A stretch of 64,000 nucleotides of DNA from an uncultured Thermoanaerobaculia bacterium (GTDB taxonomy: Bacteria; Acidobacteriota; Thermoanaerobaculia; Thermoanaerobaculales; Sulfomarinibacteraceae), in NCBI GenBank assembly GCA_964552395.1, contig CAZKGM010000003.1:50030-114029 (forward strand), read 5' to 3'. Numbering within the stretch: position 1 is the stretch's first letter; each line of letters opens with the position of its first letter. The notes below the pieces were generated by a model, which saw only the letters and a list, made by a program, of their open reading frames with translations, ran no database searches and was not told the DNA's origin. The position numbers were made by a program, and so were the translations under genes. Positions 33,231 through 57,006 of the stretch are shown here, in pieces.

Positions 33231-33232
33231 AA

Positions 33233-35720: not shown

Positions 35721-35740
35721 CTCGTGCCGCCTGCCGCGCT

Positions 35741-37480: not shown

Positions 37481-37519
37481 GGAATCGCCTCCCCGGACCC
37501 CACTCCCGTCCGTCGAACG

Positions 37520-37960: not shown

Positions 37961-38026
37961 GCTGCCCTCCTTGGCAGAGATCAAATGCGGGGGCCGGGGG
38001 CACCCGGCCCCCGCAGGGTGTCAGCA

Positions 38027-38275
38027 TCAGCCGCCCGAGCCCTCCTCCGGCGGCAGGGTGATGAAGGAACCGCCGAAGTAGCTGTAGATGCAGCGCCCGG
38101 AGTCGATCAGCTGCCGGATCGCGAGCTTGCACAGCTTCTTGTCGACGGCGTCGTCGCCGAACTTTTCGATCATGGCCTTGGTCAGGTCCATGGCCTTCAG
38201 GTTCTTCTTGCCATGTGTGACCTTGACCAGGTCGAACATGGCCTGGGCCACCTCATCGACTATGGGCTGACTCAT
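38027..38275 (-). CDS. dsrD: DsrD
   Basis: 82 aa directly after dsrB; K..KKNLK..DL and LIDSGRCIYSYFGGSF. Confidence 0.88.
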   Translation of the reverse strand: MSQPIVDEVAQAMFDLVKVTHGKKNLKAMDLTKAMIEKFGDDAVDKKLCKLAIRQLIDSGRCIYSYFGGSFITLPPEEGSGG

Positions 38276-38284
38276 GACCGCCTC

Positions 38285-39361: not shown

Positions 39362-39377
39362 GGATTCCTCCCTTTCC

Positions 39378-40571
39378 TCACTGATCCTCGTCTTCGAGCT
39401 CGTCCTCGAAGAAGATGTAGGGGTTGGTACGCGGATGGGCGACCATCTCGGGCGTCGGCTCGAGACCGATCTCCTCGAGGAAGTTCCCCAGGCCAACGCG
39501 CTGGATAAACTCGCCGACGCGCTCGCGGTTCTTGCCGTACTCGCCCCAGAAGTCCCAGATCGCCTCGGCGAGCTCCTTGAGGTCCTCGTACGGTGGCTTC
39601 ATCTCGAGGAACGGCACGAACACCGCCGACAGCAGAGCGCCGCCGATGATCGGCGCCTTGGCGCCAATCAGGATCGTCGCGCCCCGCTCCTTGCCGGGCC
39701 TCAGCGCCTTCGGCATCACGTTGATGCAGTGCATGCACTTGACGCACTCGGAGTTGTCGATGTCGAGGCTCTTGCCGTCCCACTGGATGCAGTGCGTCGG
39801 GCAGAGCCTGCAGATCTCGTTCCGGATATCGACGCCGTCCGCCGCGTACTTCTGCACCTGCTCCTGGTCGACCTGGATGTCGTCCTTCCAGGTGCCTATG
39901 ATCGACATGTCCGAGCGGGCCACGGAGGCCACGCAGTCGTTCGGGCAACCGGAGAACTTGAACTTGTACTTGTACGGGAACGCCGGCCGGTGCAGCTCGT
40001 CCTGGTAGCTGTGGGTGATGTCGTTGCAGGCATCCAGAGTGTCGTAGCACGCCCACTCGCAGCGGCCGGGGCCGACGCAGCAGCTCGGCGTCCGCACGTC
40101 GGAGCCCGAGCCGCCGAGGTCGAAGCCGTGCGCGGTGAGGTCGGCAAAGCAGGGCTCCAGCGCCTCGGTCTTCGACCCCAGGAAGATGATGTCGCCGGTG
40201 GAGCCGTGCATGTTGGTCAGACCGGAGCCGTGCCGCTCCCAGATATCGCACAACGTACGAAGCACCTCGGAGGTGTAGAACCAGCCGGCGGGCTGGTTGA
40301 CGCGGTAGGTGTGGAACGCCGCAACCTCCGGAAACTCCTCCGGTAGGTCGGAGTACCGGCCGATGACGCCGCCGCCGTAGCCCATGACGCCAACCAGGCC
40401 GCCGTGCTTCCAGTGGCTGATCTTGTCCTCAAACGACCGCTCGAGCTGGCCGAGCGTGTCGCGGGCCATGGGGTTTGTCTCCGCGCTTTTCTTGATCTCC
40501 TTGACGAAGCTCGGCCACGGCCCTTTGTCGAGCTCGTCAAGCAGCGGGGTTGCTCTATTCTTCTCACTCAT
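39378..40571 (-). CDS. dsrA: Dissimilatory sulfite reductase alpha subunit
   Basis: [71 protein letters not shown]. Confidence 0.98.
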
Positions 40572-40589
40572 GTCGACTCCTTTCCCAGA

Positions 40590-42173: not shown

Positions 42174-42224
42174 GTCCTCCTCCTTCTCCCCCGCGCGACA
42201 TCCACTCCTCCCCGTCGCGCAGAC

Positions 42225-42240
42225 TGCAACCCATGTGCCA
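42225..42240 (-). promoter_or_regulatory. sigma54 promoter of the yeiH-dsrABD...dsrC operon
   Basis: Reverse complement TGGCAC-ATGGG-TTGCA, a perfect consensus; AT-rich tract at about 42265-42295. Confidence 0.88.
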
Positions 42241-42334
42241 GTCGGGCGTTCCCGCAACCGACATGGAAAAGCTTGAAGATGCAGTTATTTATGGAGCCAA
42301 GCCACGATGCTGGCTGCGCGACGCCAGCTGGCCC

Positions 42335-42690: not shown

Positions 42691-44304
42691 CTAGTGGAAC
42701 TCCCACTCCAGGAAACCCTCGGGGATGTCGCTCATCGCGTTCACGATCAGCTCCACCAGGCCCCCGTACAGGATGCCGCAGCGGTCCCAGGCATCGTAGT
42801 AGGTCAGGAGGTCCCTCATCTGGCCCTTGCAGTTGGAGCACGGCGCGCACACATACTTGTGCGTCTCCGGCTCGATGCAGTCGGCGAACGCCTCCAAGAT
42901 CTGAATGAACTTGACCCGGCCCGCGACCCGGGTTCGCCAGTCCGGGAAGTTGAGAGACTGGCAGACGGCGAAGCCCGACCCGCCGCCACAGCAGAAGTTG
43001 TCGACGCCGTGGGGCTCCATCTCGCGGAAACGGGGCGCGATCTTGGCGAGAATGTTGCGCTGGGGCTGGATGATGCCCATCGAGCGCGTGATGTTGCACG
43101 GGTCGTGCAGGGTGACCGGGAAGTCGTTCCGCGAGGGGTCGAGGGGCAGCCTGCCGCTCAGGACCAGGTCTTCGAGTGTGACCAGGCAGCTCTCGGTGCG
43201 CACCCGCAGCGGGTCCGGGATGAGGCGGTCGGCGGCCGCCATCGTGGCCTTGTGGGCGTGGCCGCACTCACCCATCATGATCTTCTTCACCCCGAGCTTC
43301 TTGGCCACCTCATAGTGCTTGAGCGCAATCCGCGAGAACTGGATGTCATCGTAGAAGAGGCCGTAGTTGACGGAGTCGTACCCCACGAGCTCCGACGACA
43401 GCGTCCATTTGATGCCTGCCGCCTCGAGGATGATCGCGAACGCCTGCAGGTTCTCCGGCCATGACAGGAACTCGCCCGCGTTGTGCAGCACCAGGTAGTC
43501 GGCGCCCTCGACATCGAAGGGGATCTTGATGTCGAGCTTGGTCTTCTCCGTAATATCTTCTTCGGCGAACTCCATGATGTCCATCAGGCCGGCCGGATTG
43601 AGGCCGGTGGAGGAGCCCACCGCCATCTGCTTGACCGTCCCCAGCTCGTGCAGCTCGGGCATGGCGATTCCCAGCTCCTGGCTGAACAGCTTCCTGATCT
43701 CCCGCGTGAGGAGGCCGTTGTCGATCCCGATCGGGCACTGCTGGGCGCAGCGGCGACACAGGGTGCAGCGGTATGACAGCTCGGCGAGCTTGACCAGCGT
43801 TTCCCAGTCGAGCTCGATGTCGTTGCCGCGCAGCTTCGGAAACAGGTTGCCGCCTGGCTTGATGTAGCGGTCGACGATCTTGCGCAGGATCTCGGCGCGG
43901 AACGTCGGACGATACATTTCCATGTGCCCGGACGCCGTGTAGATCGGGCACGCCTCGGCGCAGGTCTGGCACTTGACGCAGTTCTCCATGGACACGAGAA
44001 GCGGCTGCAGGAAGGTCCAGTTGTTCTCCTTGGTCAAGAGCTTGCGCAAGCCGCTGAGGAACCCGGCCACCAGGCGCTCCTTCTCCTCCTCGCTTTTCGG
44101 CACCGGGATCTGGGCGCCGCACACACCATCCGGACCGACCTCGATCCTCGTGCGCTGGTCCTCGGTGATCTCCTTGATCGGCTCATCCACCCAGTCCTCG
44201 TAAGGAGGAGGCAGCGGCAGCAGGCGGGCAGGGTCGACGTCCTCGTTCTCGGCGAGAAAACGGAGCAGGTCTCCCTGCGATGCGATCCTCGGCCTCTCCA
44301 TCAC
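42691..44304 (-). CDS. DsrK/HmcF-like FeS protein with CCG domain
   Basis: CVKCQTCAEACP, CTLCRRCAQQCP, GECGHA, HDPCN, CCGGGSG, CSNC. Confidence 0.88.
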   Translation of the reverse strand: MMERPRIASQGDLLRFLAENEDVDPARLLPLPPPYEDWVDEPIKEITEDQRTRIEVGPDGVCGAQIPVPKSEEEKERLVAGFLSGLRKLLTKENNWTFLQPLLVSMENCVKCQTCAEACPIYTASGHMEMYRPTFRAEILRKIVDRYIKPGGNLFPKLRGNDIELDWETLVKLAELSYRCTLCRRCAQQCPIGIDNGLLTREIRKLFSQELGIAMPELHELGTVKQMAVGSSTGLNPAGLMDIMEFAEEDITEKTKLDIKIPFDVEGADYLVLHNAGEFLSWPENLQAFAIILEAAGIKWTLSSELVGYDSVNYGLFYDDIQFSRIALKHYEVAKKLGVKKIMMGECGHAHKATMAAADRLIPDPLRVRTESCLVTLEDLVLSGRLPLDPSRNDFPVTLHDPCNITRSMGIIQPQRNILAKIAPRFREMEPHGVDNFCCGGGSGFAVCQSLNFPDWRTRVAGRVKFIQILEAFADCIEPETHKYVCAPCSNCKGQMRDLLTYYDAWDRCGILYGGLVELIVNAMSDIPEGFLEWEFH

Positions 44305-45194
44305 TTTCCCCCCTTCGTGTCGTGCTCTGGCACCTCGGTCACGACCTCGGCCCAGCTGCGGCCGGTCTGGATGTGCGGCGCCGACCAGTCCATCCCGTAC
44401 TGCAGCGCCGCCTCCAGACGAGATGAGAACGGGCCTCCGGCCACGTACGGCCGATCATCCCACCGCACCTTGTGGTAGGTAAAGTACTTGGCGAAGAAGT
44501 GCACCATCCGCGTGTAGGGCATGTAGAGAACGAACAACGCACCCAGCGCCATCTGGAGCCCGAGGAGCGGCGTGACATCGAGTGGCTTCAAGCGCAGCAC
44601 GGAGGCGACCGCTGCGCCCGCGCCCGCCAGCCCATCGGTGACCACCACGGCCGTGCTCGCCGCCCCGAACGCCAACAACAGCAGGAGGTTGAGGCGATCC
44701 AGCGGCGTCGTGTACGGCCTCAGCTTGGGGCTCGACGAGCGCTCGATCAGGAGCACGGTTGCGCCCACGAGCAGCAGGCCGCCGCCGAAGCCGGCCAGCC
44801 ACGGGAGCACGATGCTCAGGATCGCCGGCGACCAGCCCAGCCCCTGTACGACGAGGCCCACCGTGGTGACGACGAGGAGGTAGAGCCCCCAGTGGAACGG
44901 CATCGATCCCCACCACAGGCTGCGGTTGTTCTTCCACACGCCCTTCAGCAGGACGATCTCCTCACCCATGGCGCTCACCTCTCCGACCAGGCTCGTCCGC
45001 CGCTTGTGGGTCCACCAGTCCTTTTCCTCGAGGTAGGAGCCGCCGTGATCCCGGCGCGGCTCGTGTGCCACGGGGTACAGATCCCACCTCAGATGCATCG
45101 GCGTCAGCGCATAGTGAAGCCCCTTCATGACACATCCCGCGATGAACCCGATAACTGCCACCCAGACCCACGCCAGCAAGCCGATCCCCGCCAT
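44301..45194 (-). CDS. DsrM/NarI-like membrane cytochrome b
   Basis: RWDLYPV, FHWG, PYTRMVHFF, about 5-6 TM; translationally coupled to the DsrK-like gene. Confidence 0.82.
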   Translation of the reverse strand: MAGIGLLAWVWVAVIGFIAGCVMKGLHYALTPMHLRWDLYPVAHEPRRDHGGSYLEEKDWWTHKRRTSLVGEVSAMGEEIVLLKGVWKNNRSLWWGSMPFHWGLYLLVVTTVGLVVQGLGWSPAILSIVLPWLAGFGGGLLLVGATVLLIERSSSPKLRPYTTPLDRLNLLLLLAFGAASTAVVVTDGLAGAGAAVASVLRLKPLDVTPLLGLQMALGALFVLYMPYTRMVHFFAKYFTYHKVRWDDRPYVAGGPFSSRLEAALQYGMDWSAPHIQTGRSWAEVVTEVPEHDTKGGK

Positions 45195-45240
45195 GAAACC
45201 TCCCCGGCCCGGCACCCGGCCGGACACCGCCGTTCGACCG

Positions 45241-45256
45241 AGCAAGTATCGTGCCG
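45241..45256 (-). promoter_or_regulatory. sigma54 promoter of the dsrM/K-like pair
   Basis: Reverse complement CGGCAC-GATAC-TTGCT. Confidence 0.82.
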
Positions 45257-45393
45257 TCTCAGCATCGGCACCACTCGGCGGCTGCGGCGAACCAGAGTGC
45301 ACGCAAGTGGCGCGGCACCCAGCCGTTGCCGACCGCTCGTCGCGCCTTCACGATCCAGCGCCTCGCCTGCAGACCGCCGCCGCCGGGCAAGCA

Positions 45394-45595: not shown

Positions 45596-46348
45596 CTATG
45601 AGCCCTGTATCAGGTCGTCCTTGGCATAGCGTTTCTTCACCCAGCTCGGGATGAGCGACAGCAGGACGAAGAAGATGGCTGCTATCGCCAGGTAGACAAT
45701 GGTCTTCTTCACAGCTTCCGGCTGCCCTCCGGAGAGGATCACCTCACGCGCCGAGCCGGCGGCGAAGTTGAAGGCGATGGTCGCCGGGATCATGCAGGGA
45801 AAGGTCACGAGAATGTAGGTCCGCAGCGGGATATCGGTCAGGCCGTAGACGTAGTTCTGGACATTGAACGGAAAGAGCGGCACCAGGCGGGTGATCATCA
45901 GCATCCGCCACCCCTGCTTGCGGACGCCGTCGTCGATCTTCTTGAGGGCCCGGTTCTTTTCGACCCACCCGGCGACCATGTCGCGGGCCGCGTAGCGGCC
46001 GATGAGGAAGGCCAGCACGGCCCCCAGGTTGGCGCCCACCGTGGTCCACACCGACCCCCACACCGCACCGAAGATGAGGCCGCTAACGATGGACATCGGC
46101 AGACCCGGCAGCAGCAGAACGCAGGCGATGATCCAGATCGCGATCAGCGCCGCCGGCGCCCACGGTCCCATACCGTGGAAGAACGCATCGAGCCTCAAGA
46201 CGCGGTCCTTGAGCGTCCCTCCCTTGAGCATGTCGAAGACGCCGAAGTGGTTGGCAATGAGGATCAGCGCCGCGATCGCGGCCAGCACCACTACCAGCTT
46301 GATCCAGGGCCTGCCGCCGCCGGCCTTGTCCTCGCGTTCTCCGCTCAT
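45596..46348 (-). CDS. TVP38/TMEM64 (DedA superfamily) membrane protein
   Basis: LPGLPMSIVSGLIFG, FLIGRY, RLVPLFPFNVQNYVYGLT. Confidence 0.9.
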   Translation of the reverse strand: MSGEREDKAGGGRPWIKLVVVLAAIAALILIANHFGVFDMLKGGTLKDRVLRLDAFFHGMGPWAPAALIAIWIIACVLLLPGLPMSIVSGLIFGAVWGSVWTTVGANLGAVLAFLIGRYAARDMVAGWVEKNRALKKIDDGVRKQGWRMLMITRLVPLFPFNVQNYVYGLTDIPLRTYILVTFPCMIPATIAFNFAAGSAREVILSGGQPEAVKKTIVYLAIAAIFFVLLSLIPSWVKKRYAKDDLIQGS

Positions 46349-46491
46349 GGTCTGTACTCCTTCCCAATGGTAGGCCCTCAAGCTGCGCCCGAAGGCCCAC
46401 CCGGATCACCCGCGGACGTTAGCCGGACACCGAGGAACGAAGCGGGCCGGGAATGACCCCGGCCCGCCTTCCCTCGAAATCGCGAGCCGGT

Positions 46492-47463
46492 CTACTTGCA
46501 GTCGTCGCACACGATGTTGTTCGGATAAGCCTTGTTGTAGTAGCTCCACTCGATCCACGAGCCATCGTAGTTGTGAAGATGGGAGATATCCCATCCCATG
46601 AGGTAGAGCGAGAAGATCTCGGTCGTCGTGCGGACGCCCGACTGGCAGTAGAAAATCTGGTGCTTGTTCTTGTCCATGCCGATTGCATCGATGAGCTTCT
46701 GGGTGGCGGCGGCGTCCTTCCAGGCGGTCGCCTCCCCACCCTCGGCCACCGGCTGCTTGAACGCCGGCCAGTTCTGATGCTTGGCCCACGGAATGCGGCC
46801 CTTGGCGTAGGCGCCCTTCTTGAGCTGCTCGCCGCTCCACTCCTTGCCGCCGCGCGTATCCCACAGCTGGTACTCCGGCGAGGTCTTGACCCGCCAGATC
46901 TCCGACAGCCCGACGGTCCACCCGGGCAGCTCATCGGCTGCGACAAAGGTCCCCTCCTTGGCCGGCCTGGCCGGCAGGTGATCGACATCGTAGCCGGCCG
47001 CCTTCCACGCCTGGAAGCCGCCGTCGAGGACCCGGCAGTCCGTCTTGCCGTACAGGTAGAACATCCACCATACCCGTGTCGAGTCGTACTTGTGATCGTA
47101 GATGACGACCTTCGAGTCGTTGTCGATCCCGAGCTCGCGTGCGAACGCCTGGAAGGCGTCGCGGTCGAGGGCCATCCCCTCGTACGGGAACTCCACGCCT
47201 TCCTTGGGCTCGTAGTCGCCCCGCCAGATGTGCAGTGCACCCGGGACATGGCCAAGGCCGTAGTCGGTGAGCTTGGCAACCGCCAGGACCACCAGCTTGG
47301 GGTCCTTGGCATCCATCATCGACTTCAGCTCCTGGGCCGTGATCAAGGCTTGACCGCGCTCGAAACCCTTGTAGTTGTCTCCCGCGAGGAGCGGCGCCGC
47401 GGCACCTATGACGAGGGCCAGGATCACGACGATCGGCCACCTGCAGAATCGTTGCTGGGACAT
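46492..47463 (-). CDS. Exported tandem-domain rhodanese/sulfurtransferase
   Basis: Sec signal peptide, GHVPGA, VLDGG, DTRG..E, GRIPWA, active-site FYCQSGVRT, YDGSWIEW. Confidence 0.92.
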   Translation of the reverse strand: MSQQRFCRWPIVVILALVIGAAAPLLAGDNYKGFERGQALITAQELKSMMDAKDPKLVVLAVAKLTDYGLGHVPGALHIWRGDYEPKEGVEFPYEGMALDRDAFQAFARELGIDNDSKVVIYDHKYDSTRVWWMFYLYGKTDCRVLDGGFQAWKAAGYDVDHLPARPAKEGTFVAADELPGWTVGLSEIWRVKTSPEYQLWDTRGGKEWSGEQLKKGAYAKGRIPWAKHQNWPAFKQPVAEGGEATAWKDAAATQKLIDAIGMDKNKHQIFYCQSGVRTTTEIFSLYLMGWDISHLHNYDGSWIEWSYYNKAYPNNIVCDDCK

Positions 47464-47517
47464 GTCTCTCCTCCTTTGCATTCACGTTCAGACAGCCACT
47501 ACGGCCGGAACATCTAG

Positions 47518-47587: not shown

Positions 47588-49045
47588 CTATTCCGAGGCC
47601 GTGCCCGCAGGTGCCGTGTGGGGCCGGTAACCGTCTTCGTTACCCTGCTGTAACAGCCGCCTCGCCTCGGGTGGAGTGTAGTGGAGGGGGAGCTCGACGG
47701 CAAAGGTGCTGCCCGCCCCCTCCTCACTGCTGACGGCCACACCACCGCCGTGCGCCTCGAAGACCTCTCGCACAATCGCGAGACCGAGCCCCGTCCCCTC
47801 CGGCGCGTGACGCTTTGCGTTCGGCGCGCGAACGAACTCGAGCAGGACTTGATCGCGGAACGCCGCCGGAATTCCGATGCCGCGATCGAGCACCTGAACC
47901 GTCACGGCGGTGTCGTTGACGCGCAGGCGAACCGTCACGGCGCCTCCCCGATACGAGTACTTGATTGCGTTTTGGACCAGGTTCTCGAAGGCATGGACCA
48001 GATCGGGGGGAATCCCCCAGTCGAGGATGGCCACACCGTCGAAGTCCGGGACCAGCTCGATATTCCGCTCCGCGGCCAGCGGCTCCAAGGCATCCATGAT
48101 GTCGGCCAACAGCTGGTTGACGTTGATAGCCCGGCTCCACGGGGCCCGACCCCGGCCCTCCCGAATCTTGGCCAGCTCGAGCAGGTCGTTGACGATCGCC
48201 AGCAGGCCGTCGACCCGCTCGATCGCACCGGCGAGCAGGCGGCGCCCGCGTTCGGAGGCAGGGTCGACGTAGCCCTTCGCCAGCACAGACAGCGTCGTCT
48301 GGACGGTTCCCAACGGCGACCGGAGCTGGTGGGCCGAGATCCGCATGTAGTGCGACTTGCGTTGCTCGAGCTCGGCGATCTCATCGAGCAGGCACTGCAG
48401 CTCGGTCGTGCGCTCCTGCAGCTTGCCGGTGGTCCTGTAGAGCTCGATGTTGCGCTTCTTGAAGCGGCTGGTCACCGAGTCCGTGAGGTAGACGATGCCG
48501 AAGAGGGCGACCGTGAGAGCCACGAGGTTGAGGTCACAGGCACGGCCGCACATGCCGCGAGTAGGATCGACGGGATGGACGGCGAGTAGCCCCTTGCCCT
48601 CCGCCATGTACAGCCCGAGAAGACCGACAGACGTTGCTGCGGCCAGGACATACATGATTCGGGTCGCGATCATGATGGTCCCGATCGCCATGTGAAATGC
48701 GAACACCGGGAGCAACGGGCTCTGCAAGCCTCCGCTGAAGTGAACGGTCACGACCAGCGACAGGAGGTCCATGACCATCTGCCGGATGGCGCAGCTGCGG
48801 AGGTTCCCGTAAGGTTGGCCGTGCTCCTCCGCAATGCGAAACACATTGAAGAAGATCAAGTTGTAGGCGGCCACGAAGAGGGCCACCAGGAACAGGCTCG
48901 GCCATACCGACTGCATGCCGATGCGCGGGCCCACAAGCGACGCCGCCACCAGCCCCGCGACCGCCAGCCAGCGGAGCTTGATGAACCACTGCAGACGTTC
49001 CCGTAGCTCCGGGGCGAAGATGAAGGCGAACCGGGACTCGGCCAA
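47588..49045 (-). CDS. Membrane sensor histidine kinase
   Basis: About 6 N-terminal TM; H-box SAHQLRSPL; NLVQNAIKY, DRGIG, GTGLGL, GAGSTF. Confidence 0.92.
   Translation of the reverse strand: MAESRFAFIFAPELRERLQWFIKLRWLAVAGLVAASLVGPRIGMQSVWPSLFLVALFVAAYNLIFFNVFRIAEEHGQPYGNLRSCAIRQMVMDLLSLVVTVHFSGGLQSPLLPVFAFHMAIGTIMIATRIMYVLAAATSVGLLGLYMAEGKGLLAVHPVDPTRGMCGRACDLNLVALTVALFGIVYLTDSVTSRFKKRNIELYRTTGKLQERTTELQCLLDEIAELEQRKSHYMRISAHQLRSPLGTVQTTLSVLAKGYVDPASERGRRLLAGAIERVDGLLAIVNDLLELAKIREGRGRAPWSRAINVNQLLADIMDALEPLAAERNIELVPDFDGVAILDWGIPPDLVHAFENLVQNAIKYSYRGGAVTVRLRVNDTAVTVQVLDRGIGIPAAFRDQVLLEFVRAPNAKRHAPEGTGLGLAIVREVFEAHGGGVAVSSEEGAGSTFAVELPLHYTPPEARRLLQQGNEDGYRPHTAPAGTASE
47639..47654. promoter_or_regulatory. 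Palindrome GTTAC-N6-GTAAC (candidate enhancer site 3, inside the 3' end of the kinase gene)
   Basis: GTTAC-CCTGCT-GTAAC, 106 bp upstream of the -24 element. Confidence 0.72.
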
Positions 49046-49048: not shown

Positions 49049-49432
49049 CTACTCCCCGATCAGCTCCGCAACGTGGGCCAGGAGCTCCTCGGGGGAGACG
49101 GGCTTCTCAAGGTAGCGGTCGCACGGCACCCACGACTCGTCGACCTCCATCCTCACGTTGTAGACCTGGTCCACACCGGTGAGCATGATGATCGGGATGG
49201 CGGCGGTCGCCGGATCCGTGCGCAACGTGCGCGCCACGTCGAAGCCTTCCGAGAGGTGGTCCATCATCACGTCGAGAACGATCAGATCCGGCGCTGCCTC
49301 GTGGACCCGAGCCAACCCCTCCGTTCCGTTGCCCGCTGTCGAGATGCGGTAGCGGGTTTCCAGTACCGCTGACACCGCGTCCACGAAAACCTCGTCGTCG
49401 TCGATCAGGAGGACTGTCTTCCTCTCGTCCAT
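49049..49432 (-). CDS. Stand-alone response regulator receiver
   Basis: LLIDDD, LDVMM, IIMLT, YLEKP; no output domain. Confidence 0.9.
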   Translation of the reverse strand: MDERKTVLLIDDDEVFVDAVSAVLETRYRISTAGNGTEGLARVHEAAPDLIVLDVMMDHLSEGFDVARTLRTDPATAAIPIIMLTGVDQVYNVRMEVDESWVPCDRYLEKPVSPEELLAHVAELIGE

Positions 49433-49440
49433 GGGACCTC

Positions 49441-51351
49441 CTAGTGTCCGACCAGCGCCCCTGTTGGACATGCGGTGAGGCATGAGCCACAGTGGATGCA
49501 CAGCTCCTGGTTCACGGAGTGCACATGCTTGATCGTACCCGAGATGGCATCCGATGGACAGGCCTTGGCGCACAGTCCGCAGCCGTTGCACAGCTCCTCA
49601 CTGATCGAGTATGTCAGCAACGCCTTGCACTGGCCCGCGGGACAACGACGATCGACTACGTGGGCCTCGTACTCCTCGCGGAAGTGGCGCAACGTCGACA
49701 GGACGGGGTTCGGCCCGGTTTGTCCGAGGCCGCAGAGCGCGGTTCCCTTGATGTGAGCGGCCATCGACTCCAGGAGATCGAGATCCTCGAGCCGTCCCCG
49801 GCCGGCGGTGATCTCCTCCAGAGTATTCAGCATCACCCTGGTGCCGATGCGACAGGGAGGACACTTACCGCATGACTCGTCGACCACGAACTCGAGGAAG
49901 AAGCGCGCCAGCTCCACCATGCAGGTGGAGGAATCCATGACGATGAGGCCCCCCGAGCCCATGATGGCACCCAGCTCCTGCAGCGACTCGTAGTCGATCG
50001 GGGTATCGGCGGCCGACGCCGGTATGCAGCCCCCGGATGGACCGCCCGACTGCGCCGCCTTGAACGGTAGCCCCGAGCGCATCCCGCCGCCGATCTCCTC
50101 CACCACCTCAGCCAGCGAGACACCCATCGGCACCTCGACCAGCCCGGTGTTGCGAACCGCCCCCGCAAGGGCGAACACCTTGGTTCCCTTGCTTCGCTGG
50201 GTGCCGATGCCGGCGTACCAGTCGGCGCCTCGGAGCAGAATCGGAGGCACGTTGGCCCATGTCTCGACGTTGTTGAGCAAGGTCGGCCGGTTCCACAGCC
50301 CACACTGAGCGGGGAACGGCGGCCGCGGTCGCGGTGTACCACGCTGTCCTTCGATCGACCGCATGAGGGCCGTTTCCTCGCCGCACACGAAGGCTCCGGC
50401 CCCGATCCGAATCTCGACCTCGAAGGTGTGCCCGGAGCCCAGGATATCGGGCCCCAGCAGGCCGCAGCGCCACGCGTTCTCGATCGCGCCCTCGAGTCGT
50501 TCGATCGCGAGAGGGTACTCGGCCCTGACATAGATGTAGCCCTGACGCGAGCCGATGACACGGCCCGCTATCGTCATCGCCTCGATGACGGAGAGCGGGT
50601 CTCCCTCGAGGATGCTGCGGTCCATGAACGCGCCGGGATCGCCCTCGTCGGCGTTGCAGACCACGTACTTGACGTCGCCGGCCGCCTCACGAACGAACTG
50701 CCACTTGAGGCCGGCAGGAAAACCGGCGCCGCCGCGGCCGCGCAGGCCGCTTCGCTTGAGAGCGTCGAGCACCTCGGTCGCTTCGAGGTCGAACAGGACC
50801 TTCTCGAGAGCCCTGTAGCCATCGGCTGCCACGTACTCCTCGAGGCTCGCGGGATCGATCACGCCGCAGTTGCGCAGCGCGATCTTCTGCTGCCGCGCGA
50901 AGAACGGTACCTCTCTGCTGTGCAAGAGCTTGCCCTCGGGCGTCTCCCAGGCAAGCTCGAGATCGGCCACAGGGGTGTTGCCGGCCAGATGCTCGGAGAC
51001 GACGCGCTGCACCTTTTCTGGATCGAGCATCGGGTAATACACACCGTCCGGCACCACAAGGGCCAGGGGGCCGGCGTCGCACAGCCCCATGCAACCCACC
51101 TCGACCACTCTCACGGCATCCTGGAGCCCTGCGCCGGCAACCTCGTCGCGCAGGGCCTGCGCGACAGAGTCGGCATGGCAAGAAACACAAGCTCCACCAG
51201 CGCACACCAGCACCTCGCGCCGGACCGGAGTCTCTCCACGACGGCTCTCGAGCCGCGTCGCGAGCTGCGTCGACAGGGCGCTGCGAATGGCCGCCAGGTC
51301 CGTCCTCGTGAGCGGGTTGGGGATCGCCGAGTCAGGCAGGTTCGTCGCCAC
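49441..51351 (-). CDS. HydB/NuoF-like NAD(H)/FMN subunit with N-terminal [2Fe-2S] and C-terminal 2x[4Fe-4S]
   Basis: CAGGAC...CMGLC, LRGRGGAGFP, CNADEGDPGAFMDR, CGEETAL, SCGKCPPCRIG, CNGCGLCAKACP. Confidence 0.92.
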   Translation of the reverse strand: MATNLPDSAIPNPLTRTDLAAIRSALSTQLATRLESRRGETPVRREVLVCAGGACVSCHADSVAQALRDEVAGAGLQDAVRVVEVGCMGLCDAGPLALVVPDGVYYPMLDPEKVQRVVSEHLAGNTPVADLELAWETPEGKLLHSREVPFFARQQKIALRNCGVIDPASLEEYVAADGYRALEKVLFDLEATEVLDALKRSGLRGRGGAGFPAGLKWQFVREAAGDVKYVVCNADEGDPGAFMDRSILEGDPLSVIEAMTIAGRVIGSRQGYIYVRAEYPLAIERLEGAIENAWRCGLLGPDILGSGHTFEVEIRIGAGAFVCGEETALMRSIEGQRGTPRPRPPFPAQCGLWNRPTLLNNVETWANVPPILLRGADWYAGIGTQRSKGTKVFALAGAVRNTGLVEVPMGVSLAEVVEEIGGGMRSGLPFKAAQSGGPSGGCIPASAADTPIDYESLQELGAIMGSGGLIVMDSSTCMVELARFFLEFVVDESCGKCPPCRIGTRVMLNTLEEITAGRGRLEDLDLLESMAAHIKGTALCGLGQTGPNPVLSTLRHFREEYEAHVVDRRCPAGQCKALLTYSISEELCNGCGLCAKACPSDAISGTIKHVHSVNQELCIHCGSCLTACPTGALVGH

Positions 51352-51949
51352 TGGCCTCCTCCTCCGCTGACGCGGCGCTCTCTCGCCGCGCCCGTGCCCG
51401 CAACTTCCGAACCAGCTTCCGCACCTCGGTGGCAGTCAGGTGACCGTGCACCTCATCGTTCACCATCATGGCCGGAGCGAGGCCGCAGGCACCGATGCAG
51501 CGCACCTGCTCGAGACTGAAGAGTCGGTCCTCAGTGACATCACCAATCCCGATCGCGAGCAGGCTCTCGATCGCCTCCAGCACGCGCTGTCCCTGCCGAA
51601 CGAAGCAAGCGGTTCCCATACACACCTTGAGCTGATACCGACCGCGGGGGTTGGTGGTAAAGAAGTGGTAGAAGCTGACCACGCCGTAGACCTCGATCGG
51701 CGACAGAGCGAGCTGCTGGGCGACGTACTCCTGGACCGGAAACGGAAGGTAGCCGATCTCCTCCTGCACCCTGTGCAACAGCGGAATCAGCCGCTCCCGT
51801 CCGCCGGGGTGCGCGGCAACCCACTGGTCGATCAGGTCCCACACCTCCGGACGGATCTCGTCGGCCGGAAGCGGTTCCTGGGTCCCGAAGAAGCCCGGCA
51901 ACTCGCCCGTTGTGCGCTGCCGCTCTTCCACCCCCGTACGCTCGCTCAT
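51332..51949 (-). CDS. HydC/NuoE-like [2Fe-2S] subunit
   Basis: VVSFYHFF, VCMGTAC, RCIGACGLAP. Confidence 0.92.
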   Translation of the reverse strand: MSERTGVEERQRTTGELPGFFGTQEPLPADEIRPEVWDLIDQWVAAHPGGRERLIPLLHRVQEEIGYLPFPVQEYVAQQLALSPIEVYGVVSFYHFFTTNPRGRYQLKVCMGTACFVRQGQRVLEAIESLLAIGIGDVTEDRLFSLEQVRCIGACGLAPAMMVNDEVHGHLTATEVRKLVRKLRARARRESAASAEEEASGDEPA

Positions 51950-54474
51950 TTCGACCTCCGGACCTCAACTGCCGTCGGCTCGGCCCCGTTCTCCATCAGC
52001 CGCGCAGCCGCATCCTCGCTGCCGTACCACTGCGCCACCGGCCTCCCCGGCCTCACCCGGCGGTCAAGCCGGGCGCGAAGCAGAATCTCCCTGCCGCCCG
52101 CCCTGACGCACACGCGCTCGCCGTTGCGGACACCGACGGCCTCGGCGTCGGACGGGGCGAGGTGGAGGGCGACAGTCGGCGCCAGCTCCTGGAGAGTCGC
52201 GCTGAAGCTGGTCACCAGCCCGCTGTGGAACAGACGGGGCGAGGCGTCGAGCAGCATCCCGCTCGGCTTCCTGCTTCCTATCGGCGGCGGCGCGGCGGCA
52301 AGACTCACCGTGGGCCGCTGAGCCGCTCCGGCCAGGGCTGCTGCGATCTCCTCGTCGAGGAGCAGCTTCGACGGCAGCTCCACGCCCAGCCGCCGCGCAA
52401 CCTCCACGATCAAGCGGCCATCCTGGGGAAGGCCCGCCGGAGCCTGCACGACTCCGGCAAGGCGCCGCCGCTGTCCGTCGGCGGCGACCACGGACCCTTC
52501 CCGCTCGCCCAGGATCGCTACCGGCAGCACGACGTCGGCAAGGCGGGCGGACTCGGTGAGGAACGTGTCCTGCACCACCACGAACTCCGCGCTCCGCACC
52601 ATGGCACGCCCGGCCAGGCGTCTGGGCCAGGAGCCCACCGGGTCCTCGCCAACGAGGTAGAGCAGCCCTACCTCCCCCGTCGCCGCGTGCTCGCTAGCTT
52701 CAGCAAGGGACCATCCCGGGGCTGCAGGCACCGGTACGCCCCATGCCGCCTCGAGCCCAGCTGTCGCCTCGCAGTCGCCAACACGCTTGCCGCCCGGCAG
52801 CAGTCGAGGATGGAGACCAACGTCGAGCACGCCCTGCACGTTTGCCTTTTCGCCCAGGACCATCACCTTCGGTTCGGCTCCATCCCCGCCGCCGAGAAGC
52901 GACATCAGCTCGACTGCGGCACGTGTCACCTCGGCCTCGTCGCCCGGGATGCCGAGCCCGGTCAGCACCACGGCGACTGGTGCGGTCGCCGCAAGCAGGC
53001 GCTCGGCAAGCTCCTCGAGCCGTTCCGGCGCCACCCCGGTGATCTCCGAGGCCGTCACCGGTGTGTAGGCACCGAGGCTGGTGAGCCAGTCCGAGAGCCC
53101 GGCGGCCCCTTGGTCCCTGGCTATCCCGGAGCGCTCCGCCACCCGTGCGGCCACCGCCCGTACCAGGACCTCCTCTGTTCCGAGAGCCGGCGAAAGGTGC
53201 ATGGCGGCGTGTCGCTCCAGTCCGCCCGAGAGACCATGCACGAGGATGAAGTCCCGTCCCCGTTGCCGGGCCCCCTGTACGAGCTCGGTCTTCACGAGCG
53301 GGTGGGTCCGGGTGGGGTCCGCCCGCAGCACGAGGACCAGGTCCGCGGCCCACAGGTCCTCGAACGTGGCCGTCGACCGCGCCGCGCCTGTGCGCTGGCC
53401 CATCCCGTCGACCAGTGCCTCGACACCGCCCACAGGTCCGACTCCGACATGCGGTGAGCCGAGGCCGCCGCGCACCAGCCGCTGCAGGAGATAGGCGTCC
53501 TCGCAGGTGAGGCGGGAGCTTCCGACCGCGACCACAGCCTTCTTCGACCGGCGAGTCTCGGCGGCAATACGCTCGACCTCGGCCAGCGCTTCGGCCCAGC
53601 TGGCGTCGACCAGGCGCCCGCCGCGCCGCACCAGCGGCACCGACAGCCGCTGCGGGCTGGTGAGAACGTCCCAGCCGAGCCAACCCTTGGCGCAAAGCTT
53701 GCCGCGGTTGGGCGCCGTGTCCGGGTCCGCCGTGACCCGCTGCAGGGCCCCGCCGTGCGTCTCAACCGTCACCTGACAGCCGCAGCTGCACAGGGAGCAG
53801 GTCGTCACAGCCCTTTGCCGGAGCCACGCCGGTACGTCCGAGTGGTAGGGCCTGGCGGAGAGCGCTCCCACCGGACAGGAGTTGACACACTGGCCGCAGA
53901 ACTCGCAGTCCAGCGGTCGCTCGAGAAACGTGGTGACCCGTGCATCGAGGCCGCGGTTGACAATGCCGATCTCCGCCACCCCCTGTACCTCGTCGCACAG
54001 GCGAACGCAACGGCCGCACAGGATGCACTTCTCTGCGTCGCGGACGATGACCGGCGAACGGTCGTCGAGCGGCACCTGCCGGCGCTCGAACGGCAACAGG
54101 GCATCGGCAACTCCGTGGTCGAAGACCAAGTCCTGGAGACGGCAGTCGCCACTCTTTTCGCACACCGGACACTCCATCCGATGATCGAGCACGATCAGCT
54201 GCAGCTGCCGCCGTCTTGCCTCGATCACCTGCGGCGTGTCGGTCTCGACAATCATGCCCCGCTGCACCGGGGTCGAGCACGCCGGCACCAGGCCGCCGCG
54301 CCCGTCCCGCCGCTCTACCAGACACAGACGACAGCCTCCGTAGGGGGTCAGGCGATCGTCGTGGCACAGCGTGGGTACGGAGATCCCGAGCCCCCGCAGG
54401 ACCTCGAGGACCGAGGCGCCGGAGCTGGCCTCGAGCTGCTCACCGTTGACCGTGATCGGCACGCTCGCCGTCAT
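51946..54474 (-). CDS. NuoG/FdhA-like FeS relay subunit with molybdopterin-fold C-terminus lacking a catalytic ligand
   Basis: CH...CRLC...C [2Fe-2S], HRMECPVC...C, 2x CxxCxxCxxxC, CSLCSCGC...LCAKG. No C/U-H motif in the Mo-ligand region. Confidence 0.85.
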   Translation of the reverse strand: MTASVPITVNGEQLEASSGASVLEVLRGLGISVPTLCHDDRLTPYGGCRLCLVERRDGRGGLVPACSTPVQRGMIVETDTPQVIEARRRQLQLIVLDHRMECPVCEKSGDCRLQDLVFDHGVADALLPFERRQVPLDDRSPVIVRDAEKCILCGRCVRLCDEVQGVAEIGIVNRGLDARVTTFLERPLDCEFCGQCVNSCPVGALSARPYHSDVPAWLRQRAVTTCSLCSCGCQVTVETHGGALQRVTADPDTAPNRGKLCAKGWLGWDVLTSPQRLSVPLVRRGGRLVDASWAEALAEVERIAAETRRSKKAVVAVGSSRLTCEDAYLLQRLVRGGLGSPHVGVGPVGGVEALVDGMGQRTGAARSTATFEDLWAADLVLVLRADPTRTHPLVKTELVQGARQRGRDFILVHGLSGGLERHAAMHLSPALGTEEVLVRAVAARVAERSGIARDQGAAGLSDWLTSLGAYTPVTASEITGVAPERLEELAERLLAATAPVAVVLTGLGIPGDEAEVTRAAVELMSLLGGGDGAEPKVMVLGEKANVQGVLDVGLHPRLLPGGKRVGDCEATAGLEAAWGVPVPAAPGWSLAEASEHAATGEVGLLYLVGEDPVGSWPRRLAGRAMVRSAEFVVVQDTFLTESARLADVVLPVAILGEREGSVVAADGQRRRLAGVVQAPAGLPQDGRLIVEVARRLGVELPSKLLLDEEIAAALAGAAQRPTVSLAAAPPPIGSRKPSGMLLDASPRLFHSGLVTSFSATLQELAPTVALHLAPSDAEAVGVRNGERVCVRAGGREILLRARLDRRVRPGRPVAQWYGSEDAAARLMENGAEPTAVEVRRSK

Positions 54475-54485
54475 CTTCAAACCCC

Positions 54486-56612
54486 TCACTCGACCCCCAG
54501 CGGTCGCAGTCTCTTGAACGCCCACTTCGTCCGCAACCGGTTCCCGTAGCGGGCGATGCTCCCCGGCGGTTTGGCGGACGCCTTCGACCTCCAGTCCTTC
54601 TCGAACAGGAAGTCCAGAATGTGGATCGCCGGCTTGCCGGTGCCGGCGATCGCCATCCGACAGCCGGCGCAGTAGGTCACCTGAGGCAGCGCGGACTCCG
54701 CCGCCCGCCGCCGGCTCACGGCCTGCGAGAGCTCCGGATCCACCGGGTAGATCATGCCTCCGAAGCCGCAGCAGCGGGCCAGCTCACCGTTGTACTCGAT
54801 GTCGTCGACCCCGCCGCCGCCCGCCTCGATCAGAGTACGGACCGCTTGGTGAAGATCCGGCTCGTGGCGCGCCTTGCACGAGTCGTGGACCGAGACGACT
54901 TCTCCCTCCCGTCTCCGCGGCGGCTCCCACCTCCCGGCCAGCAGCTCCCACACCGTCGTCACCGCGAGCTCGGGAAAGCTCTCCTTCAAGGTATGGGCGC
55001 AGTCGGGGCAGGCGGCGACCAGCTCTTCCGCACCGACCTTCTCGGCCGCCTCCAGGATCCCTCGCCGCGTCTGTTCAAACTCCTCCTCCATCCCGAGCAG
55101 CTCCACCGGCGCGCCGCAGCAGTACATGAGAACGCCCGTTCCGGGGTAGCTCCGCCGCAGCTCGTCATACATGGTGATCGTGTGGCGCGGCGCGACCGCC
55201 GGCAGGGCGCAGCCGGTGAAGAACAGCCGCTTCGCCCGTCTCCTGCCCGGCTCGGCCATTGCCAGCGTGAACATCGAGCCGACTCCGGCCTTCCAGTAGC
55301 TCACGATCCCCTTGTGCACGGGCAGCGGGCCGACACCCTCCTCGACCGCTCGGCGCCGCGCCTCAATCAGTAGCCGCCCGGTGTCGAGGTCCTCCGGGCA
55401 CACTGCGGCGCACAGGGAACAGACGTTACAGGAGTACGCCATCTTCACCGTCTCGGGCACCTCGAGACCGGCCATGATGCGTCGTGCGATGTCCTTCGGC
55501 GAGCTGCAGTACTTGGCGAGGAATTCGCAGTCCTTGACGCACAGACCACACTCGCAATCAAGGCACCGGGCGGCTTCCTCGAGGGCCTCCTCCTCAGTCA
55601 GCGGCGGGTTGGCAGGGACCAGCATCATCGGGGTCCGCTCGCGCCTCTTGCGCTCCTCCTCGGTGACCTCCAACGTCCACAGCAGGCGATCCGGTAGCAG
55701 CTGCTCGCGATCGGCCCTGAGGTCTCGGCCGCTCAGAAAGCGGTCCACAGACTCCGCCGCCCGGCGCCCCAGCGCCAGCGAGTAGATCACCGTCGCGGGC
55801 CCGCTGACGGCGTCGCCGCCGGCGAAAACACCCGCCATTGGGGTCTCACAGGTCAGGGGGTCCACAGCCAGGAGCCCACGCGGGGTGGTGCCTTCGGCGC
55901 CCCGGCGCATCATCACGCACGCCCCGGCAAAACCCACCAGCAGCAGCACCGCGGCATAGTCACGGCGCAGCTCATCGAGGGTGATGTCGCGCCCGACCTC
56001 GACCCCGGTGCGCACCTCGATGCCGAGCGCGGCGACGACCGACAGGTCGCGCTCCACGACGCTTCTCGGCAGGCGCCAGGCCGGGATCTTGGCAACCAGG
56101 CAGCCGCCGATCTCCTGCTCTCGCTCGAAGACCGTGACCCCGAACCCCTTCCTGCGCAGGTCATACGCTGCCAGCAGGCCCGCCGGGCCGGCGCCCACGA
56201 CCGCCACCCGCTGCCCACGGTCCGGCTCGCAGTCGATCACGTGCTGCGGCTCCCCCGTCTCCCACTCGGCCAGGAACCTCTTGATATCGCGGACACGGAC
56301 CGCTTCGTCCTCGTCAATCCGCTTGCAGTGCAGCTCGCACGGATGGGCGCAGACATACCCCAGAACCCCGGGAAACGGCAGGCGCTCCCGCACCAGCTGC
56401 AGGGCCTCGCGGAACCGACCCTCACGGGTCAGCTGGACGTAGCCCCGAGCATCCACGTGCAGCGGGCAACGTCCGACGCAGTTGGCGGGCCCCTCGCCGC
56501 GACACCGCTCGAGCAGATCGCTCGCCAGCCACTCCAGGCTCCCGACATCGTGCCTGGTACCACCGACAACCCCGAGGGCCGATCCTTCCAGACGGTCCGC
56601 TGGTTCTGCCAT
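54486..56612 (-). CDS. GltD-like FAD/FeS oxidoreductase fused to 2x[4Fe-4S] and two CCG domains
   Basis: CVGRCP and GYVCAHPCE, VGAGPAG, FAGGD, CLDCECGLCVKDC, CNVCSLCAAVCP, FTGC/CCG/CPDC and HDSC/CCGFGG/YCAGC. Confidence 0.88.
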   Translation of the reverse strand: MAEPADRLEGSALGVVGGTRHDVGSLEWLASDLLERCRGEGPANCVGRCPLHVDARGYVQLTREGRFREALQLVRERLPFPGVLGYVCAHPCELHCKRIDEDEAVRVRDIKRFLAEWETGEPQHVIDCEPDRGQRVAVVGAGPAGLLAAYDLRRKGFGVTVFEREQEIGGCLVAKIPAWRLPRSVVERDLSVVAALGIEVRTGVEVGRDITLDELRRDYAAVLLLVGFAGACVMMRRGAEGTTPRGLLAVDPLTCETPMAGVFAGGDAVSGPATVIYSLALGRRAAESVDRFLSGRDLRADREQLLPDRLLWTLEVTEEERKRRERTPMMLVPANPPLTEEEALEEAARCLDCECGLCVKDCEFLAKYCSSPKDIARRIMAGLEVPETVKMAYSCNVCSLCAAVCPEDLDTGRLLIEARRRAVEEGVGPLPVHKGIVSYWKAGVGSMFTLAMAEPGRRRAKRLFFTGCALPAVAPRHTITMYDELRRSYPGTGVLMYCCGAPVELLGMEEEFEQTRRGILEAAEKVGAEELVAACPDCAHTLKESFPELAVTTVWELLAGRWEPPRRREGEVVSVHDSCKARHEPDLHQAVRTLIEAGGGGVDDIEYNGELARCCGFGGMIYPVDPELSQAVSRRRAAESALPQVTYCAGCRMAIAGTGKPAIHILDFLFEKDWRSKASAKPPGSIARYGNRLRTKWAFKRLRPLGVE

Positions 56613-56709: not shown

Positions 56710-56967
56710 TCACCGATTCGTAACATCATCGGCCACCCGTTCGAAACGTGCGGGTCGGAGCTCGAACTCTCTGCAGGCCACCTCCGGATCCTGAAAGGTG
56801 TTCCGCACCGCGCAGATGCCCGCGCGCCCGCGCGTCGAGCCATAGGACGACGACAGCACGAGGATGCCGGGGAAGCTCCTCTCGAGAGCCGCCGGATCGT
56901 CCTGGAAGTACCTGCACTCAGCACAGGTTCGGCTCTCCTCGACAGCTGAAGGGTGATCTCTGATCAT
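56710..56967 (-). CDS. Small 4-Cys protein (C-X2-C-X33-C-X12-C-X2-F)
   Basis: 85 aa ORF directly after a sigma54 motif, on the same strand as the cluster. Confidence 0.65.
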   Translation of the reverse strand: MIRDHPSAVEESRTCAECRYFQDDPAALERSFPGILVLSSSYGSTRGRAGICAVRNTFQDPEVACREFELRPARFERVADDVTNR

Positions 56968-56990
56968 GCTGCACCACCACCGCCGGGTCA

Positions 56991-57006
56991 TGCAATTGGT
57001 ATGCCC
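56991..57006 (-). promoter_or_regulatory. sigma54 promoter of the flavo-FeS/CCG unit
   Basis: Reverse complement GGGCAT-ACCAA-TTGCA keeps the GG-N10-GC spacing. Confidence 0.7.

Follow-up and report, generated by a model that had tools for sequence, protein, structure and literature searches.

A candidate NADH-driven sulfur-bond reductase encoded beside the dsr genes of a Thermoanaerobaculia bacterium

Introduction

Where do the electrons go in an enzyme that combines the NADH module of bifurcating hydrogenases with a molybdopterin-like subunit lacking a molybdenum site and a flavoprotein ending in two CCG motifs? The question is raised by four adjacent genes, here called G1 to G4, at positions 49441-56612 of a 64,000-nucleotide stretch of DNA (the window) from an uncultured Thermoanaerobaculia bacterium (GenBank assembly GCA_964552395.1, contig CAZKGM010000003.1), which also holds a dsr locus on the same strand. 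In marine sediments, Dsr-carrying Acidobacteriota are reported to account for a sizeable share of dsrAB genes and of dsrB transcripts (PMC10591310), and G1-G4 offer a concrete, testable candidate for electron delivery to DsrC in these organisms. The reading that we favor, tentatively and at somewhat less than an even chance, is that the four proteins form a soluble, cytoplasmic iron-sulfur (FeS) flavoprotein complex that would act as an NADH-driven reductase of an S-S bond, likely that of a carrier of the Dsr pathway.

A four-gene unit

The interval contains exactly four open reading frames (ORFs), all on the minus strand and all with a coding-type GC content at third codon positions (0.81-0.86; the genome has about 67% GC). 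Transcribed in the order G1, G2, G3, G4, they encode a 708-residue FAD protein (G1, 54486..56612; Pfam and NCBIfam NF045663), a NuoG/FdsA-like subunit of the BfuA type (G2, 51946..54474; Pfam and PDB matches), a NuoE/HydC/HoxE-like [2Fe-2S] subunit of the BfuC type (G3, 51332..51949; PF01257 at 167 bits), and a 636-residue NADH/FMN subunit of the HydB/BfuB type (G4, 49441..51351; Pfam, NCBIfam and PDB alignment). The genes are translationally coupled. The ORF of G2 reaches to 54525, and a GTG at that position had earlier been taken as its start; this is now replaced by the ATG at 54474, the most likely start, which lies 11 nt past the stop of G1 and has a GAGGGG box. G2 and G3 overlap by 4 nt and G3 and G4 by 20 nt, and G4 starts at a GTG with GGAGGAGGAGG directly before it. 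None of the four proteins has a transmembrane (TM) segment in a hydropathy scan. A promoter and terminator scan of 48900-57300 gave one weak sigma-70-like site, on the wrong strand, and one terminator-like site at chance level.

The NADH module

The Nuo51 FMN domain of G4 (PF01512, PF10589) carries the ADEGDPGAFMDR FMN/NADH motif, and the protein also contains the motif CNADEGDPGAFMDRS and, by Pfam, an N3-type cluster. Its ends are extended by a thioredoxin-like [2Fe-2S] domain (2Fe-2S_thioredx) at residues 45-120 and by two Fer4 domains at 582-633 with two CxxCxxCxxxCP motifs. Residues 44-633 align without large gaps to the bifurcating HydB subunits 7t2r_B and 7q4v_B (E ~1e-235). In the 2022 Bfu classification, Schut et al. 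give the non-canonical B2 ligands of A. mobile HydB as C438, C476/T, H525, C531, and C536, with the His missing from non-bifurcating homologues (PMC9304861). The aligned residues of G4 are C477, T515, H564, C570, and C575. Judged by sequence, G4, G3, and G2 of the window carry every feature that marks a Bfu core, namely the FMN/NADH site of BfuB, clusters B1, B2 (including its His), B3/B4, and B5, and cluster C1 of BfuC.

A NuoG-like subunit without a molybdenum site

G2 retains five FeS sites, made up of a [2Fe-2S], a His-ligated [4Fe-4S], two ferredoxin-type [4Fe-4S], and the Molybdop_Fe4S4 cysteines. It also carries the Pfam domains Molybdopterin and Molydop_binding, and its best PDB matches are the FdsA-type formate dehydrogenases 6tg9_A and 9wxb_B (E ~1e-92). 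When G2 is aligned to FdsA, Cys386-His387 is replaced by Gly-Val, Arg587 by Gly, and DPR by HGL. The Mo-ligand Cys-His pair, the catalytic Arg, and the DPR pterin motif are absent from every orthologue examined (up to 70 loci), among which the DPR position is not even conserved. Mean identity among orthologues is 0.49 in the Mo-like domain as opposed to 0.63-0.66 in the FeS domains, and in NCBIfam G2 reaches neither the cutoff for Fdh-alpha (TIGR01591, 299.6 against 666) nor that for NuoG (336.5 against 470). The H-cluster domain of [FeFe]-hydrogenases is likewise absent, as HydA models match the N-terminal FeS part only (residues 22-239). Because the Mo and pterin motifs are lost in all orthologues and the Mo-like domain evolves faster, G2 is read as a pterin-free scaffold and electron wire similar to NuoG. 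The BfuA subunit of NfnABC/StnABC also carries a pterin-free, formate dehydrogenase-like domain. A Mo protein found beside P0124 was considered as an orthologue of G2 and rejected, as it is only 23% identical and of the Ahy/Psr type.

A flavoprotein with an HdrCB-like end

G1 begins with a Fer4_20 domain holding two [4Fe-4S] clusters, followed by an FAD domain, a linker, an HdrC-like 2x[4Fe-4S] domain, and two CCG motifs. Both the GxGxxG fold and the GGD motif are kept in the FAD part. The NAD(P)H subdomain, present in NfnA/StnC and in the DsrL of the window, is deleted from G1, a loss of about 155 residues; residues 232-242 of G1 bridge residues 291-447 of chain 9bov_A in the PDB alignment, and Pfam finds no Pyr_redox central domain in G1, whereas the window DsrL has one at 288-373. 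On either side of the deletion the two proteins remain alike (BLASTP identity 40% over 43-227 and 35% over 257-413). The GltD part of G1 scores 208, 199, and 182 bits against the GltD modules found inside BfuA of NfnABC/StnABC, compared with 141 bits against NfnB. Since it is closest to a module that is fused into BfuA, a contact between G1 and G2 can be argued for in the manner of a Rosetta stone.

The C-terminal half of G1 is where the substrate would be expected. Its motifs, Cx29CCx35CxxC followed by Cx34CCx32CxxC, are like those of HdrB and HdrD, and all ten cysteines (C468...C498C499...C535xxC538 and C579...C614C615...C648xxC651) are invariant among 16 homologues. With two CCG motifs placed after a 2x[4Fe-4S] domain, G1 has the cysteine content of a catalytic HdrC+HdrB or HdrD module. 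A profile of this half matches HdrC and HdrB (5odc_C, 5odc_B) as well as EtfD. A single-sequence PDB search gave EtfD and weak HdrC matches only, HdrB being reached by the profile alone, and among PDB sequences the CCG part matches EtfD best. Identity to the window DsrK, which has one intact CCG motif only, is 22%. The AF2 model of G1, built without cofactors, has a pLDDT of 78.9, and when the whole model is used in Foldseek, GltD/DPD folds dominate, EtfD appears at rank 13, and the CCG half is not resolved. G1 scores just above the cutoff of an NCBIfam model, NF045663 (pyridine nucleotide-disulfide oxidoreductase/dicluster-binding protein), at 541.7 bits against 530, with profile positions 661-759 unmatched; members of this model are found in unrelated gene contexts. 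A basic C-terminal helix is conserved in the alignment of homologues.

The similarity to EtfD is important, as its double-CCG module is a closed electron wire in which motif 1, with CT in place of CC, binds a linear [3Fe-4S] cluster and an extra His serves as a ligand that completes the second (PMC13083937). G1 has CC in both motifs and CPDC where EtfD has CPHC. As the CC pairs together with CPDC are the pattern of HdrB, a catalytic site for S-S cleavage is favored for the CCG end of G1.

The preliminary description of this DNA had recognized much of this architecture: a HydB-type subunit with the CNADEGDPGAFMDRS motif and additional FeS domains at both ends, a NuoG-like subunit keeping its FeS sites and lacking both an H-cluster and the Mo-ligand Cys/Sec-His, and a fourth subunit with a GltD-like FAD site, no NAD(P)H Rossmann domain, and two CCG domains. 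The Pfam assignments, the alignments (including that to FdsA), the orthologues, and the invariant cysteines bear it out. It had also named the CCG module as the only plausible substrate site, which still holds, as no orthologue of G2 has the Mo site and G1 is without an NAD(P)H pocket.

Conservation across genomes

A locus scan with one genome per GTDB species gave 52 loci with a full-length G1, mostly from Thermoanaerobaculia, Vicinamibacterales, and other Acidobacteriota, along with single metagenome-assembled genomes (MAGs) labelled Methylomirabilota, Eisenbacteria, and Fibrobacteraceae. The best 120 of thousands of G1 homologues share more than 60% identity, and those with a named source are labelled Acidobacteriota. 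G2 follows directly after G1 in all 52 loci, with roughly -5 to +17 nt between the G1 stop and the G2 start, and the gene order G1-G2-G3-G4 is kept among the loci. Flanks were counted in the 30 loci with at least 9.5 kb of downstream sequence. Rhodanese or dsr genes are present in all 30, and dsrM, dsrK, or dsrAB lie within 10 kb in 21; in loci L027, L038, L043, and L048 the cluster directly abuts dsrMK. The cluster of the window is itself embedded in a dsr locus (dsrMK, dsrAB, dsrL, dsrN, dsrC), a linkage that recurs in dozens of genomes. As far as the flanks show (30/30), the operons are not mostly confined to genomes that lack sulfur metabolism, which would have been the opposite pattern.

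Across these genomes G1-G2 is the conserved core, and the NADH module is the variable part. A full HydB-type G4 is present in 18 of the loci long enough to judge. In the sister-clade locus L031, the NuoF protein (15117-16745, 542 aa) is HydB-like by best PDB match, with GNGDAGDPGPTADR in place of the ADEGDPGAFMDR motif. HydB-derived NuoF proteins truncated after the B2 ligands and altered to GNGDAGDPGPTADR were also observed in L029-L036, L048, L049, L070, and L071. An assignment of the sister-clade NuoF to the FdsB type was rejected, as it is a HydB-type protein without the C-terminal domain.

Relatives and origin of G1

When 1.84 billion cluster representatives were searched with the C-terminal half of G1, 548 clusters matched at E <1e-30. 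The nearest relatives outside the acidobacterial clade (830-860 aa) are complete DsrL-like proteins that include the NAD(P) Rossmann domain in addition to the dicluster and CCG domains. The NAD(P)H Rossmann domain is retained by six relatives 831-861 aa long (checked by Pfam in four), and NuoEFG-like neighbors were found beside none of these, whereas acidobacterial-type G1 genes without this domain are followed by G2 in 52 of 52 cases. From this complementary distribution it can be argued that G2-G4 supply the reductant once supplied by the lost domain, and it is the best in-silico argument for such a replacement. We propose that G1, a DsrL-like protein, lost its own NAD(P)H site and that G2-G4 took over the function of that site, an exchange of modules in which a three-subunit NADH module would have taken the place of an internal NAD(P)H domain.

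The gene contexts of the relatives are mixed. In L084 (7062-11518) the order is G1 relative, rhodanese, DedA; in L083 (4-4232) a rhodanese lies upstream of the G1 relative; and in L081 (2674-15647) the relative is near TusA, DedA, rhodanese, and two Ahy/Psr-like Mo enzymes. These three relatives are DsrL-like proteins plus CCG domains of 844-861 aa, and no dsr genes were found in their flanks. The rhodaneses of L084 and L083 are 31-34% identical to that of the window and the DedA proteins of L081 and L084 37-40%. Because the trio of CCG flavoprotein, exported rhodanese, and DedA recurs, a persulfide-type substrate is as plausible as DsrC. The relatives in L082, L085, and L086 instead have corrinoid-activator, fumarate-reductase-like, or 2-hydroxyacyl-CoA-dehydratase-like neighbors, and a Rhodocyclales MAG (L069, 2908-12217) encodes a distant 749-aa G1-like protein beside an enzyme of the xanthine dehydrogenase family and XdhC. 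Given these mixed contexts, the wider G1 family is not sulfur-specific. L069 also contains a [2Fe-2S]/[4Fe-4S]/GltD protein that has the NADPH domain. Genes encoding a DUF7479 protein of about 61 aa are repeatedly found near G1 relatives (L082, 623-808; L085, 8837-9025; L086, 4038-4223), some of which (P0137, P0180) carry this domain as a C-terminal fusion.

Proposed electron path

We infer a path for the electrons through the putative complex from homology with the solved HydABC, NfnABC, and HdrABC structures. The FMN of G4 would oxidize NADH, and the electrons would pass via the clusters of G4 and G3 and then the five of G2 before entering G1 through its two N-terminal (Fer4_20) [4Fe-4S] clusters. 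From the FAD of G1 they would move to the HdrC-like dicluster and on to two HdrB-type non-cubane [4Fe-4S] clusters, where the S-S bond would be reductively cleaved. The most likely substrate would be the trisulfide or disulfide of DsrC, or a persulfide or polysulfide delivered via the rhodanese-DedA pair, and reduced ferredoxin is a possible second donor in this organism. As the flavin of G1 lacks a pocket for a hydride donor and shows just two FeS connections, it would probably serve as a relay or a converter between one- and two-electron steps rather than as a second site of bifurcation. The third substrate of characterized Bfu enzymes has a potential between those of NAD and ferredoxin, and for acceptors of high potential Schut et al. 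propose the joint oxidation of NADH and ferredoxin (PMC9304861). A disulfide or trisulfide belongs to this high-potential class, and therefore ferredoxin, if involved, is more likely a co-donor than a product, and it fits this view that sister clades have lost their ferredoxin-side clusters.

A more specific possibility, which we regard as unlikely, is that the assembly represents an 'Hdr-Bfu' class, a cytoplasmic terminal reductase in which NADH and ferredoxin together reduce DsrC trisulfide. If this were true, then together with the NADPH-dependent DsrL-DsrAB, sulfite reduction would be possible without the membrane-bound DsrMK step in these Acidobacteriota, which are abundant in sediment and soil. 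Should the G1 flavin bifurcate in such an enzyme, reduction of DsrC trisulfide would be coupled to that of ferredoxin.

Weighing the alternatives

Several points weigh against an NADH-driven S-S reductase of the Dsr pathway. DsrMK is the established DsrC-trisulfide reductase, and as it is present, a second one is not required. The neighboring rhodanese and thioredoxin-like proteins have export signals and so cannot be direct cytoplasmic substrates. The Mo-enzyme, dehydratase-like, and corrinoid neighbors of G1 relatives are so varied that the CCG end may be a general electron-transfer module or a catalytic module of another kind. The NADH end is eroded in some genomes: in 10 loci G4 stops right after the B2 ligands and the C-terminal 2x[4Fe-4S] domain, and with it B3/B4, is absent, two loci lack the N-terminal domain of G4, and in L027 (9905-17315) and L012 (1996-8449) G1-G2 stand without adjoining NuoEF genes, those of L027 being followed immediately by dsrMK-dsrAB-dsrL. 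In addition, recA and a gene for a thioredoxin-like lipoprotein are syntenic upstream in many loci, so the dsr linkage may in part be gene order inherited within Acidobacteriota. The preliminary proposal of a Dsr-coupled sulfur-bond reductase is thus sustained in its CCG outlet and its recurring dsr linkage; DsrC would be one candidate for the substrate. As the nearest relatives that keep the NAD(P)H domain stand beside rhodanese and DedA without dsr, or in non-sulfur settings, a persulfide or another acceptor is equally open.

It is possible that the CCG end of G1 is a wire like that of EtfD, and that the complex is an NADH dehydrogenase module feeding a protein partner (DsrK/DsrMK, DsrAB, or another) or membrane menaquinone. 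HdrD-like double-CCG modules can be pure conduits, as EtfD demonstrates (PMC13083937), and EtfD is the closest solved sequence to the CCG part of G1; relatives of G1 occur beside many different redox enzymes, as would be expected of a generic electron-transfer subunit; G1-G2 directly abuts dsrMK in several loci; and the conserved basic helix could serve in docking. However, G1 has all ten cysteines with both CC pairs and none of the Thr/His substitutions of EtfD, and it lacks a TM segment, which leaves this explanation with a low though appreciable probability. True bifurcation, in which NADH would reduce ferredoxin pulled by exergonic S-S reduction as in FlxABCD-HdrABC or MvhADG-HdrABC, has a rather small chance of being correct. 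It had been raised in the preliminary description, and the complete Bfu core of the window, including the B2 His and the B3/B4 clusters leading to ferredoxin, speaks for that idea, as does the homology of the G1 flavin, which sits between two FeS branches, to the bifurcating L-FAD of NfnB. With a high-potential disulfide, though, a Bfu core would be expected to oxidize both NADH and ferredoxin (PMC9304861), and the acceptor lies above NADH in potential. The G1 flavin also has the limits described above, and with B3/B4 lost in 10 loci and NuoEF in two, ferredoxin coupling would be dispensable; bifurcation is therefore not a trait of the family.

Alternatively, the complex may run in the oxidative direction, with thiols or persulfides of DsrC or another carrier oxidized at the CCG end and electrons passed to NAD+ (and ferredoxin) in the manner of sHdr/rDsr, for a role in sulfur oxidation or disproportionation. 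The genes dsrL and yeiH beside dsrAB and the exported rhodanese are features also seen in sulfur oxidizers, and Bfu enzymes are reversible (PMC9304861). Against this direction, the DsrL of the window is of type 2 and has the YRR motif, a form associated with reductive-type DsrAB (PMC7596348), and neither a lipoate-binding protein nor sHdr genes were seen in the window. Reduction of NAD+ would also be strongly uphill, and that of ferredoxin even more so. Thiol/disulfide couples are more positive than NAD+/NADH, and an oxidative role is improbable. The remaining candidate is an NAD-dependent formate dehydrogenase similar to FdsABG, or another Mo/W enzyme, with G1 as an accessory subunit. Besides the FdsA-type matches and the Pfam domains of G2, relatives of G1 often lie beside real pterin enzymes, and a supplementary table on Thermoanaerobaculia MAGs lists alpha and beta genes of an 'NAD-dependent formate dehydrogenase' at positions n and n-2 (PMC8528874), a spacing that matches G2 and G4. 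These entries may be the G2-G3-G4 complex under an automatic name. The Cys/Sec-His, Arg, and DPR are missing from the window and all orthologues at positions that are not conserved, and the scores of G2 fall below both family cutoffs; the suggestion of a true Mo enzyme was rejected on these grounds, and a formate dehydrogenase is very improbable indeed. Automatic annotation of G2-G4 under that name would wrongly imply the use of formate. An NADH-driven S-S reductase remains the reading that we prefer.

The surrounding genes

All genes in this section lie on the minus strand. Immediately downstream of G4 are genes for a receiver-only response regulator (49049..49432; PF00072 at 68 bits) and a PilS-like histidine kinase with six TM segments (47588..49045; Pfam). 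The regulator starts 8 nt past the stop of G4, its ribosome-binding site overlaps the G4 stop codon, and it is translationally coupled to G4. It has tblastn matches in 36 loci; the kinase is found downstream of G4 in most related loci, and the pair is kept in most. The two genes stand between G1-G4 and the rhodanese/dsr genes. Directly upstream of G1 is a small Cys-rich ORF (56710..56991, up to 93 aa) with the core CAEC...C...C (four Cys) and no Pfam or NCBIfam match. By tblastn it occupies the same place and strand in 22 loci, and in L012 and L045 it adjoins a YeiH-like transporter gene instead; it is possibly a seventh member of the transcription unit. The earlier boundary of the unit at 49441 was thus too short, with the regulator and kinase following and this ORF preceding.

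Further downstream on the same strand, after the kinase, the order is rhodanese, DedA, dsrM, dsrK, YeiH, dsrAB, helical protein, dsrL, dsrN, TPR protein, and dsrC. The rhodanese (46492..47481; Pfam, NCBIfam, hydropathy) has two domains and an N-terminal signal/TM segment and would be exported. It is followed by a DedA/VTT-family membrane protein (45596..46381; Pfam), dsrM (44301..45302; Pfam), and dsrK (42691..44304; Pfam), for which DsrK is the best NCBIfam match, at 324.6 bits and thus below the cutoff of 400. The remainder of the locus, from the YeiH-like gene to dsrC, spans 32913..42284. A 564-aa protein of the YeiH family, a putative sulfate exporter, is inserted between dsrK and dsrA (40590-42284), and several loci (L012, L043, L048) have its gene in the same position. 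Between dsrB and dsrL lies a gene (37520-37960) whose helical product of 146-166 aa has ExxH-like motifs, matches no family, and is found at the same place in L027 with 50% identity. The DsrC at the far end (32913..33230) is canonical by sequence, with both C-terminal cysteines.

Two other parts of the window were of note. At 3464-7766, a 1126-aa fusion joins an NrfD/PsrC-like membrane domain to multihaem cytochrome c domains and is preceded by a Fer4_11 protein with four clusters, giving a DsrOP/ACIII-like quinone module of unusual architecture. At 60504-62726, upstream of recA, a 740-aa ORF with high third-position GC is partly conserved in L026 and has no Pfam or NCBIfam match.

Comparison with known systems

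We propose from the domain content that the assembly is a Bfu type-3-like enzyme with a DsrL-derived, HdrCB-tipped flavoprotein as its additional subunit. Type 3 of the Bfu family (NiFe-HydABCSL, 7t2r; FeFe-HydABC, 7q4v/7p5h) has the same three subunits, with G4, G3, and G2 corresponding to BfuB, BfuC, and BfuA, the same FMN and clusters B1-B5, C1, and A1-A5, and an additional subunit for the third-substrate site (PMC9304861). Here that subunit differs in being an FAD/HdrCB-like protein, and BfuB is eroded in sister clades. No Hdr- or CCG-type module for the third substrate was found in the searched main text of the 2022 classification (PMC9304861), and a thiol/disulfide-type substrate would be an addition to this HydABC-derived family. 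Nor was the G1-G4 cluster found described in acidobacterial dsr papers, in that main text, or in the wider searchable literature, and the probable passage of NADH electrons into an S-S bond through G1-G4 is a route not yet described for the dsr pathway.

NfnABC/StnABC (9bov, 9n5u, 8oh5) share the GltD-like FeS-FAD module, which is embedded there in NfnA/StnC. In G1 it is a separate polypeptide that has lost the NADPH subdomain and gained HdrC/HdrB-like domains, and for the former reasons G1-G4 cannot be a transhydrogenase. DsrL, the NAD(P)H:acceptor oxidoreductase of DsrAB, has two-cluster ferredoxin domains at both ends, an FAD Rossmann domain, and a linker of about 100 aa (PMC7596348). G1 follows the same order of N-terminal two-cluster domain, FAD domain, linker, and C-terminal two-cluster ferredoxin domain, and differs by lacking the embedded NAD(P) Rossmann domain and by its two added CCG domains. 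FdsABG (6tg9/6tga) resembles the cluster in that G2 is closest to FdsA and the alpha-gamma-beta gene order corresponds to G2-G3-G4; in contrast, G2 has lost the catalytic Cys-His, Arg, and DPR, and G4 is of the HydB rather than the FdsB type. DsrK is set apart by its low identity to G1 and by the presence of a separate dsrMK pair. Since the defining features of the formate dehydrogenase, Nfn-Bfu, DsrL, and DsrK families were looked for and are lacking, G1-G4 are placed outside all four.

G1 shares with HdrBC/HdrD the HdrC-like 2x[4Fe-4S] domain followed by two CCG motifs with the ten cysteines of catalytic HdrB, although its module is fused to a flavoprotein and has neither HdrA nor a membrane partner of its own. 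FlxABCD-HdrABC of Desulfovibrio is a proposed bifurcating NADH:DsrC/ferredoxin complex. Its proposed task is the same, as a soluble system that uses NADH to reduce a DsrC-type disulfide in a sulfate or sulfite reducer, but at the NADH end the two have unrelated proteins (Flx as opposed to HydBC-type), and the bifurcating HdrA of that complex has no counterpart among G1-G4.

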